21,466 nucleotides of DNA, taken from positions 1 to 21,466 of the IMG/VR virus record IMGVR_UViG_2703718792_000016; one strand, 5' to 3'. Every line of letters begins with the position of its first letter. Within the stretch, counting starts at the first letter, position 1. This document shows positions 9,714 through 18,249 of this stretch, piece by piece. This DNA comes from a virus. Taxonomy: Duplodnaviria; Heunggongvirae; Uroviricota; Caudoviricetes. A program made the position numbers and the translations under genes. A model generated the notes under the pieces. The model was given only the letters and a program-made list of their open reading frames with translations. It had not been told where the DNA came from and did not search any database.

Positions 9714-9789
9714 GGCCCTTTAGCTCAGTGGTGAGAGCGAGCGACTCATAATCGCCAGGTCGCTGGTTCAAATCCAGCAAGGGCCACCA
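9714..9789 (+). tRNA. tRNA with CAT anticodon, most similar to tRNA-Ile2 (lysidine, ileX/ileZ-like); Met not excluded
   Basis: 76 nt; cloverleaf with 7-bp acceptor stem GGCCCTT/AAGGGCC, anticodon loop CTCATAA, T-loop TTCAAAT, CCA encoded; close to my recollection of E. coli ileX. Confidence 0.85.
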
Positions 9790-9790
9790 A

Positions 9791-9867
9791 CCGCCACTAG
9801 CTCATCAGGAAAGAGCGTCAACCCTTTAAGTTGAGTGTGCGAGGTTCGAGTCCCCGGTGGCGGTCCA
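9791..9867 (+). tRNA. tRNA-like gene with non-canonical anticodon loop CCTTTAA (formal anticodon TTT, Lys); isotype uncertain
   Basis: 77 nt; acceptor stem CCGCCAC/GTGGCGG, T-loop TTCGAGT, CCA encoded, but C at position 33 and an A-C mismatch in the T-stem. Confidence 0.55.
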
Positions 9868-9869
9868 GT

Positions 9870-9945
<76 letters not shown>

Positions 9946-9948
9946 TAT

Positions 9949-10023
<75 letters not shown>

Positions 10024-12178: not shown

Positions 12179-12642
12179 GCAGAGTAACCGCGATTATCTC
12201 CGCTCTGGTTATCTGCATCATCGTCTGCCTGTCATGGACTGTTAATCATTACCGTGATAACGCCATCGCCTACAAAGAACAGCGTGATAAAAAAGTCAGT
12301 GAGCTGGAGCAGGCGATCGCCACCATCGCTGACATGCAGCAGCGTCAGCGTGATGTTGCTGTGCTCGATGCAAAGTACTCGAGAGAATTAGCCAATGCGA
12401 AAGCTGAAAATGAAACTCTGCGCGCTGATGTTGCCGCTGGTCGTAAGCGCCTGCGGGTCAATGCCAGTTGCTCCGCAGCCGTGCGTGAAGCCACCGGACC
12501 CACCCGCGTGGATAATGCAACCAGCCCCCGACTGGCAGACACCGCTGAACGGGATTATTTCACCCTCAGAGAACGGCTGATGACAATGCAAAAGCAACTG
12601 GAAGGGGCACAGGAATATATCCGTACCCAGTGTATACCGTGA
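12175..12642 (+). CDS. Rz: Rz-like i-spanin (inner membrane spanin subunit)
   Basis: 155 aa from the ATG at 12175 overlapping the endolysin stop; N-terminal transmembrane helix then coiled-coil-like sequence; contains the embedded Rz1 frame. Confidence 0.8.
12395..12580 (+). CDS. Rz1: Rz1-like o-spanin lipoprotein embedded in the +1 frame of Rz
   Basis: 61 aa with signal peptide and lipobox (LVVSAC) followed by a Pro-rich mature region, entirely inside Rz. Confidence 0.65.
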
Positions 12643-13107
12643 TGTTTTGTTATAAAGGTGTTGATGGTTGTGTTAGGGGGGATTTAACAAAAAGCCAGTT
12701 CTGGACTTTATAGTGTGCTCAGATCATGGCCAAAAACGATTTCTGTGATAAATATTTTGAATATTATTTACAGGTAAATGACGTGGGTCGCATGAATGAA
12801 AATATTACAATAGAGTATTAAGTATATGCTCATATTGTATGGGCTGAGAAGGCAAAACACGGTAATTCCTTATGTTGCTGTGATACCTGATTGGCAGAAT
12901 AGTTATTTGGTCTTGAGTATATAGTCAGCGTTTTTTGTTCAGTAATAGATCTTTCAGTTAAAAACAATAAATAGCGTGATTATTTCTGTTTGTTATTTGT
13001 ATTTTTGTTTGTTGTTTTATTGTCTTTCTGTGGAGGGGGGAGTATTGTTCCCTTATTAAGGGCAGGTAAATTTAGAATGGTAATCTGTAGATAATTGGAG
13101 GTCACTT

Positions 13108-13422
13108 ATGCTACATGATCACCAGGCTGAATGTCTGGAGAAAAAAGGACTGTACCGGAGAGCGGCTGCACGATGGGCAAAAGTGATGGTACAGCTAAGT
13201 GATGATCAGAAAAGAAAAATCGCGGCACAGAAACGAGCAGAGTGTTTGCGTAAGGCGCGCCGGACTTCGGTTGCACCGGTGAATCTGACAGAAATAAAGC
13301 AAGCGGTCAACAGACTACATTCTGAGTTGGGAATGGGATTTGAAGAGCGGCGGATATTCCGACGATATAAAGGGACAGGAGAACAGAATACGTCCGGAAA
13401 CGCGCGCTCAAAAAAATGCTAA
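13108..13422 (+). CDS. PerC-family transcriptional regulator (Pch-like), moron between lysis genes and cos
   Basis: 104 aa; N-terminal ...LEKKGLYRRAAARWAKVM... matches the PerC/Pch signature as I recall it; preceded by about 460 bp of A/T-rich non-coding DNA and followed by a terminator. Confidence 0.6.
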   Translation: MLHDHQAECLEKKGLYRRAAARWAKVMVQLSDDQKRKIAAQKRAECLRKARRTSVAPVNLTEIKQAVNRLHSELGMGFEERRIFRRYKGTGEQNTSGNARSKKC

Positions 13423-13463
13423 AAAATATTTGAGAAAGTTATTGCCTGTTACCATAAGAAAAA

Positions 13464-13485
13464 GCGACTTTAGTAGTCGCTTTTT
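13464..13485 (+). terminator. intrinsic terminator after the PerC-like gene (A-run before and T-run after, possibly bidirectional)
   Basis: GCGACT / AGTCGC stem with TTAGT loop, then TTTTT; preceded by AAAAA. Confidence 0.6.
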
Positions 13486-13590
13486 GTGTCATATATAAGT
13501 CGTTTAAGTAAACCTGTCCGAACAGGTGCTCTGGTCGTGTTTGTTTTTGTTGGGTACAAATTGAGAATGTTTTTCATTAATTAGTCTTCT

Positions 13591-13728
13591 TCAGCAGACT
13601 TCAATAATCCACGCTGAAAAAATTCCTGAACCTTTCTGACCAAAAGCGATGTTAATTTGTTCAATAATCTGGTTTGGAAATCGGATGTTGAGGGCTGTTG
13701 TTCTGCGGGTTCTGTTCTTTGATGACAT
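13591..13728 (-). CDS. small ORF (45 aa, MSSKNRTRRTTALNIRFPNQIIEQINIAFGQKGSGIFSAWIIEVC), possible ribbon-helix-helix-like protein
   Basis: Not in the ORF track; found by manual translation; basic N-terminus and an ALNIRFP strand-like segment; weak Shine-Dalgarno. Confidence 0.3.
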   Translation of the reverse strand: MSSKNRTRRTTALNIRFPNQIIEQINIAFGQKGSGIFSAWIIEVC

Positions 13729-13930
13729 AATGTTGCCCCATATTCAGTGTTGCTGGTTTGTATTTTCTGAAATTGCTTTTACGTTAATTTAATGTGGATC
13801 AATTGATGCAATGCCTGCGTCATAATTGATCATTTCTTGTGGTTAGATTGCGCACACACACGTTCAGATGAGTCATCATGAAGATGATAACTATTCTCAT
13901 TTTTGTGGGTCCTTTCCGGCGATCTGACAG

Positions 13931-14105
13931 GCTACGGGGCGGAAGGCGCGCGGGTTTTCGCTATTTATGAAAATTTTCCGGTTTAAGGCGTTTCCGTTCT
14001 TCTTCGCCGTAACTTCATGTTTTTATTTAAAACACCCCCTGAAAAGAAAGGAAACGACAGATGCTGAAAACGGGCTTTTTGGCCTTTGTCGTTTCCTTTC
14101 TCTGT
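13931..14105. other. cos site: cosN (about 13937-13948) and cosB with R3/R2/R1-like repeats upstream of Nu1
   Basis: Sequence from about 13949 onward (CGCGGGTTTTCGCTATTTATGAAAATTTTCCGGTTTAAGGCGTTTCCGTTC...) matches the lambda left end as I recall it; GGAAACGACAG / CTGTCGTTTCC inverted elements at 14047-14060 and 14086-14100. Confidence 0.7.
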
Positions 14106-14125: not shown

Positions 14126-14645
14126 ATGGAAGTCAACAAAAAGCAGCTGGCTGACATTTTCGGTGCGAGTATCCGTACCATTCAGAACTGGCAGGAGCAG
14201 GGAATGCCCGTTCTGCGAGGCGGTGGGAAGGGTAATGAGGTGCTTTATGACTCTGCCGCCGTCATAAAATGGTATGCCGAAAGGGATGCTGAAATTGAGA
14301 ACGAAAAGCTGCGCCGGGAAGTTGAAGAACTGCGGCAGGCCAGCGAGGCAGATCTCCAGCCAGGGACTATTGAGTACGAACGCCATCGACTTACGCGTGC
14401 GCAGGCCGACGCACAGGAGCTGAAGAATGCCAGAGACTCCGCTGAAGTGGTGGAAACCGCATTCTGTACTTTCGTGCTGTCGCGGATCGCAGGTGAAATT
14501 GCCAGTATTCTCGACGGGATCCCCCTGTCGGTGCAGCGGCGTTTTCCGGAACTGGAAAACCGACATGTTGATTTCCTGAAACGGGATATCATCAAAGCCA
14601 TGAACAAAGCAGCCGCGCTGGATGAACTGATACCGGGGTTGCTGA

Positions 14646-14671
<26 letters not shown>
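14126..14671 (+). CDS. nu1: terminase small subunit Nu1
   Basis: 181 aa MEVNKKQLADIFGASIRTIQNWQEQGMPVLRGGGKGNEVLYDSAAVIKWY..., matching lambda gpNu1 from memory; 26-nt overlap with the next gene as in lambda. Confidence 0.95.

Positions 14672-18249
<3,578 letters not shown>

Follow-up and report, generated by a model that had tools for sequence, protein, structure and literature searches.

The cos region of the prophage

The window (the whole stretch of DNA analysed, 21,466 nucleotides) is a lambdoid Escherichia prophage, Qin/DLP12-like in its early region and lambda-like in its late one. Among complete genomes, that of E. coli 377323_2f comes closest and covers 84% of the window at 96.4% identity. 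Four tRNA genes (Met-CAT, Lys-TTT, Thr-TGT and Gly-TCC) are found at 9714-10023, downstream of the Q antiterminator gene; the same cluster is present in a related E. coli prophage, where Met-CAT is annotated as tRNA-Ile. Further to the right lies a cos site, followed on the plus strand by the terminase genes Nu1 (TerS, 14126-14671, 181 aa) and A (TerL, 14646-16571, 641 aa).

For comparison, the two ends of lambda (J02459) were put together, right end followed by left, and the window was aligned to the product. The packaging-termination signal cosQ, the heptamer GGGTCCT at 13907-13913 (plus strand), is the same as lambda 48473-48479 at all seven positions (function as given in PMC4669245). Across the cut site the window reads GGGTCCTTTCCGGCGATCTGACAGGCTACG, then the 12-mer GGGCGGAAGGCG at 13937-13948, then CGCGGGTTTTCGCTATTTATG; bases 1-12 of lambda are GGGCGGCGACCT. 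The left half of this predicted 12-nt 5' cohesive end (plus strand), GGGCGG, is as in lambda, and the right half, a variable hexamer at 13943-13948 (plus strand), is AAGGCG where lambda has CGACCT, with five of the six bases different. Counted along the overhang, the mismatches are at 7 (C to A), 8 (G to A), 9 (A to G), 10 (C to G) and 12 (T to G), and positions 1-6 and 11 are the same in both. The cosN core of 16 bp (13935-13950, without strand) consists of the 12-mer between two CG dinucleotides, both of which are conserved, and its spacing to R3 is unchanged. Through the replacement by AAGGCG, two of the five symmetric base-pair pairs of lambda are lost, and rotational symmetry is counted at 8 of the 16 positions in the variant versus 10 of the 16 in lambda.

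To the right of the 12-mer, all 58 bases from +13 to +70 match lambda. The cosB subsites follow, with coordinates and roles taken from PMC9026076 and PMC4669245 (for R3, PMC9026076). R3, by homology the critical binding site of TerS (gpNu1), is at 13986-14001 on the plus strand, identical to lambda bp 50-65 (16/16) and at the same distance from cosN. It is followed by the I1 region between R3 and R2, the region of the IHF site, assigned by homology only (14007-14041, plus strand, 30/35 versus lambda 71-105), by the R2 region, which is inverted relative to R3 and R1 (14042-14061, minus strand, 19/20 versus lambda 106-125), and by the R1 region (14085-14105, plus strand, 20/21 versus lambda 150-170). 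From -30 to +135 the window and lambda align without a gap or indel at 150 of 165 positions, and the hexamer alone holds five of the 15 mismatches.

The terminase is essentially that of lambda, with more than 99% protein identity. Nu1 carries one substitution (L132I), gpA carries six (N9D, S21A, N37S, D185E, I459V and A596T) and the W protein is without change. Over Nu1, A and W the DNA is 98% identical, and the codon changes are 42 synonymous versus 7 nonsynonymous (30 versus 6 in gene A), which points to purifying selection.

The preliminary description of this DNA had reported a 12-nt cohesive end different from the lambda sequence, beside lambda-like following bases, cosB and Nu1/A. The alignment to the joined lambda ends bears this out on each count: lambda cos had been given correctly, the difference amounts to five positions, and the surroundings are as close to lambda as described above. 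Lambda-type sites have a 12-bp stagger, GGGC at overhang positions 1-4 and CG beside each nick (cited in PMC9303873, PMC4669245). In the window GGGC and both CG dinucleotides are in place, cosQ lies about 30 bp upstream of N1, R3-I1-R2-R1 stand at fixed spacing, and Nu1 and A are adjacent. Set against lambda cos, then, the site shows little or no change in cosQ, the left overhang half, the flanking CG, R2/R1, I1, or R3 and its spacing; overhang positions 7, 8, 9, 10 and 12 do differ, and all differences in the overhang fall within bp 7-12. Judging from the sequence, this is very probably an intact lambda-type cos (cosQ-cosN-cosB) of a lambdoid Escherichia prophage, with a tolerated variant of the right half of cosN.

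Occurrence and exchange of the variant hexamer

The same 12-mer is found in two GenBank phages, YDC107_1 (CP025712) and PhiR46_1 (PV340565), both deposited as phage genomes; the standing of the PhiR records as viable phages is that given by the GenBank record text alone, and a literature search found no paper on these ECOR-derived records. E. coli 377323_2f shares the allele as well. A complete scan of IMG/VR for alleles with a base other than T at position 12 gave AAGGCG on 77 contigs, together with GGGCGTCAGGCG (15), CAGGCG (4), CAGACG (3), CGACCG (1), CTGACG (1) and GGGCGTCAGACG (1). Among the 120 IMG/VR matches listed for an allele-blind pattern, 115 were canonical, one was AAGGCG, two were GGGCGTCAGGCG, one CGACCG and one GGGCGACGACCT, and the left half of these 120 allele-unbiased sites changed only at position 6. 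Allele-specific 36-nt queries of 5,426 complete E. coli genomes located 166 copies of the variant, spread over 155 genomes, and 7,405 of the canonical sequence, spread over 4,097 genomes, so that AAGGCG makes up about 2% (2.2%) of the lambda-type cos sites in these genomes. A higher frequency from a 60-nt megablast (284 records at 99% or above) was rejected because this band also includes truncated alignments of canonical sites. In a collection with one genome per species, a scan that is uninformative on frequency, such an allele was found only in Escherichia sp. E1V33, which suggests a narrow host range.

All alleles from the scan for position 12 end in CG, as does that of N15. The alleles can be arranged in a graded series, CGACCT, CGACCG, C(T/A)GACG, CAGGCG and AAGGCG (IMG/VR loci L060, L213, L184 and L203), in which CGACCG and CAGACG are relatable by a compensating +A/-C pair of indels that keeps the 12-nt length.

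Non-canonical cosN sequences (AAGGCG, GTCAGGCG, CAGACG and CTGACG) are also carried by satellite-like loci, in which a lambda-type cosQ-cosN is followed by a gene with about 35% identity to Nu1, a candidate Rpp, and gpA is absent (L128, 1-8600 with cos at about 4113; L132, L159, L166, L107, L185, L186, L195, L196, L202, L219, L221, L184, L187, L208 and L213). L128 encodes a D5-type primase, SSB, its own capsid-E-like and decoration-D-like proteins, AlpA and an Abi_C protein, and adjoins a truncated phage capsid gene and the tail gene Z. The cos-rpp modules of E. coli PICIs share the cosQ-cosN core of the window, but they have a TerS-like Rpp and neither R3/R2/R1 nor TerL, whereas the window has R3/R2/R1 and a genuine Nu1 and A. 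Since the cosB is a full lambda cosB and the Nu1-A pair a real one, the site in the window belongs to a phage rather than to a satellite.

Plasmid records are enriched about 37-fold for the variant (16 of its 166 places versus 19 of the 7,405 canonical ones). Examples are NZ_CP101200.1 (L227, cos at about 19800), NZ_CP055252.1, NZ_CP101226.1 and CP025712 (L003). The plasmid pEC21Z151-46K is an N15-like phage-plasmid (protelomerase, CyRepA1 and SopAB) with a lambda-type late region from Nu1 to J.

Two loci from the same IMG/VR metagenome (3300045988), L170 with the variant and L009 with the canonical hexamer, are 99.7% identical over 7,053 bp by blastn, and five of their 19 mismatches are in the hexamer. 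Its flanks match exactly, over 182 bp on the left and 721 bp on the right. This clustering of mismatches is far beyond chance, and the comparison of YDC107_1 with L009 gives the same pattern. In addition, the variant stands on at least 16 different 30-nt left flanks, the commonest of which are also borne by canonical sites. Since near-identical phages differ mainly at the hexamer, it behaves as a swappable cassette; it appears to be a discrete polymorphism that very close relatives exchange with one another as a short unit. The apparent divergence of L170 and L009 to the left in a gapless comparison was due to a 1-nt indel at -183. Three further mismatches between these loci cluster at +769, +770 and +772, within gene A and close to its start, and may mark a second short patch of conversion.

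Such an exchange could come about through short-patch recombination at cos or when mismatched cohesive ends are resolved; such ends are viable and give both alleles among the progeny (PMC4669245). Both routes are plausible and the data do not separate them. The L170/L009 pair suggests that the allele exchange via mismatched cohesive ends obtained in the laboratory may also happen in nature. It is possible, though on balance unlikely, that AAGGCG is a mobile sticky-end cassette of 6-12 bp that circulates among near-identical lambda-like phages, N15-like phage-plasmids and PICI-like satellites, by heteroallelic-cos packaging followed by mismatched-end resolution or by short-patch recombination focused on cos, and that creates incompatibility groups. 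If this were true, cohesive-end incompatibility groups would partly isolate co-resident prophages from one another.

The preliminary description had suggested a recombination junction exactly at cos, with everything to the left being non-lambda. If two unrelated modules had been joined at the cut site, the hexamer would be the scar of that event, and the resolution of mismatched cohesive ends could in principle make junctions exactly at the nick (PMC4669245). Identity to lambda is indeed about 80% on the left and rises abruptly to 98% on the right, which puts cos near a module boundary, although homology runs through it. A segment homologous to the right end of lambda precedes cosQ (13581-13906, plus strand, approximately lambda 48156-48472, about 80% identity with small indels by blastn and local alignment); with cosQ and the bases up to the nick included, 13581-13936 aligns to lambda 48156-48502 at 79.8% over 356 bp (blastn against lambda 46000-48502), so that the left side is not wholly non-lambda. 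The Rz region (12209-12620) is 82.8% identical to lambda, and between Rz and cos lambda homology is absent only in 12643-13580. The corresponding interval of the closest relative holds a PerC-family transcriptional regulator, and the window has an ORF there at 13108-13422.

Close to the nick, 27 of the 30 bases from -30 to -1 are identical to lambda. Among about 170 related loci, -30 to -18 is nearly invariant and the poorly conserved, mosaic stretch is -31 to -60, upstream of cosQ and thus not at cosN. The hexamer moreover occurs in backgrounds that match canonical-allele phages on both sides, over the 182 bp and 721 bp given above, which argues for an allele rather than a join scar. A junction at the cut site is therefore quite improbable. 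From these alignments cos is a conserved island near a module boundary, with a hexamer that is not a scar.

Portal gene B (16771-18249) of the window has an in-frame amber codon at 18247-18249, where CAG (Gln493) of lambda is TAG, so that 492 of 533 aa would be made. The change is private, being seen in no other of the 57 homologous loci examined. The prophage may consequently be defective, and its own cos may never be used. This gives some ground for regarding the hexamer as mutational damage in a dead cos, but the wider record makes decay less probable still than a junction. The same allele is present at the 166 E. coli places, on the 77 viral contigs and in the two records submitted as phage genomes; Nu1 and gpA are full-length and intact in at least 26 carriers; the rest of cos is conserved, and purifying selection on Nu1/A/W is strong. 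Random damage would not strike five of six adjacent bases alike in independent lineages.

Terminase, and predicted nicking and annealing of the variant ends

By homology with lambda, gpNu1 and IHF would assemble on cosB (R3-I1-R2-R1), and this assembly would place gpA to nick 12 bp apart, after CG in CG/G on the top strand and after G in G/CG on the bottom strand. The N1 nick would thus fall between 13936 and 13937 of the top strand and N2 between 13948 and 13949 of the bottom strand, and the virion chromosome would be expected to have the 5' overhangs GGGCGGAAGGCG and CGCCTTCCGCCC. At 13946-13951 the variant makes a palindrome, GCG/CGC (a BssHII site), within an alternating GCGCGCG run, where lambda has CCT/CGC; its centre coincides exactly with the N2 nick as inferred here.

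In lambda the asymmetry of cosN comes from the cosB-bound TerS, which positions TerL for the bottom-strand nick (PMC4669245). If the cut on the N2 side is likewise positioned by the cosB anchor and not by base-specific contacts, bp 7-12 could change without a change in terminase. Many mutations in the right half have a minimal phenotype, while G2C in the left half lowers the yield about 10-fold; TerL-lambda is as efficient on cosN-N15 as on the cosN of lambda, and lambda with cosN-N15 has a wild-type burst (PMC4669245). These experiments covered single changes and the 2-bp N15 allele (PMC4669245), and the window has a replacement of five of the six bases. By analogy with them, the AAGGCG cosN would be cut efficiently.

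The alternative is that only a co-adapted gpA/Nu1 can cut the variant cosN, which would amount to a new packaging specificity. We compared the terminases of loci in which both proteins are full-length, 36 of them canonical and 26 variant. In this set no residue of gpA or Nu1 was fixed-different between the two alleles, and none of the substitutions seen in the window was fixed among the variant carriers. Two gpA sequences (L059/L140 and L118/L131) and five Nu1 sequences are found, in identical form, with both alleles; the terminase therefore does not co-vary with the cosN allele, and co-variation was rejected. On comparative evidence only, the right-half variant requires no matching terminase change. 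What could speak for co-adaptation are the six gpA substitutions in the window, with I459V and A596T in the C-terminal half, and the pair N9D and S21A, which is commoner beside the variant (13/26) than beside the canonical allele (2/36). This association is partial, however, and fits linkage to the adjacent cos; R3 is the same as in lambda, and TerL-lambda is indifferent to changes in the right half (PMC4669245). The allele is also found beside Nu1 chimeras about 82% identical to lambda Nu1 and beside N15-like pairs (53% for Nu1, 65% for gpA; L207 and L209). Taken together, a changed specificity is hardly credible. The implication of the preliminary description that a divergent cosN would be odd for a lambda-type terminase is not borne out, given that TerL is insensitive at bp 7-12 (PMC4669245) and that identical terminases occur beside both alleles.

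Least probable of all, to the point of being negligible, is an error of sequencing or assembly, for which nothing specific speaks except that the site is GC-rich, since the exact sequence recurs independently in hundreds of assemblies, complete genomes among them, and the allele is therefore real.

On the reading of a tolerated right-half variant, the annealing of the ends to those of lambda would be affected. With DNA nearest-neighbour parameters, the predicted duplex energies were -18.6 kcal/mol for the variant with itself, -19.0 for lambda with itself, -9.5 for the variant with lambda and -15.3 for lambda with N15. The two variant ends would thus hold together as firmly as those of lambda. 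Variant and lambda ends are predicted to pair only over the 6 bp of GGGCGG, and not to anneal productively. The lambda/N15 pair of ends causes a 4-fold loss of yield experimentally (PMC4669245); with the variant/lambda duplex being so much weaker, cyclisation would be poor for a chromosome whose two ends were cut at different alleles. The earlier claim that the sticky ends are altered is thus supported, provided that terminase nicks at the homologous positions, with the predicted energy going from about -19 to -9.5 kcal/mol.

Relation to known cosN variation

Lambda-like phages often differ at bp 7-12 (N15 and phiD326 at 9 and 12, Gifsy-1 at 8, 9 and 11) and conserve cosQ, the left half and the flanking CG (Feiss et al. 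2015, PMC4669245). The cosN of mEp213 and LLS is GGGCGGCGCGCT (PMC12315714), and that of the N15 record is GGGCGGCGTCCG, with G at position 12 as in the window. Such variation of the right half has been explained by the functional asymmetry of cosN that results from cosB anchoring (PMC4669245, PMC12315714). As in the window, variation in N15, phiD326, Gifsy-1 and mEp213/LLS lies within bp 7-12, and bp 1-6, the flanking CG and cosQ are kept. The window differs from these known right-half variants in changing five positions, versus two to three, and in being paired with the terminase of lambda itself, whereas the TerL of N15 is about 65% identical to that of lambda.

A text search of searchable phage papers for GGGCGGAAGGCG, its complement and related alleles returned only unrelated papers. 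Vahanian et al. (Virology 509:140, 2017) is reportedly a dedicated survey of natural cosN sequences. The allele has been sequenced before and apparently left undescribed; it belongs to a known and understood type of variation, brings no new mechanism and leaves the current understanding of the mechanism unchanged. For annotation, it means that the ends of a lambda-type prophage cannot be assumed to be GGGCGGCGACCT, as about 2% of such cos sites in complete E. coli genomes are AAGGCG and others have related alleles. In practice, neither lambda arms nor lambda cos ends would anneal with DNA from these phages. For the biology of the family, the variant can be regarded as a natural experiment that supports the model of Feiss, in which the cosB-proximal half of cosN would be read by its position and not by its sequence.
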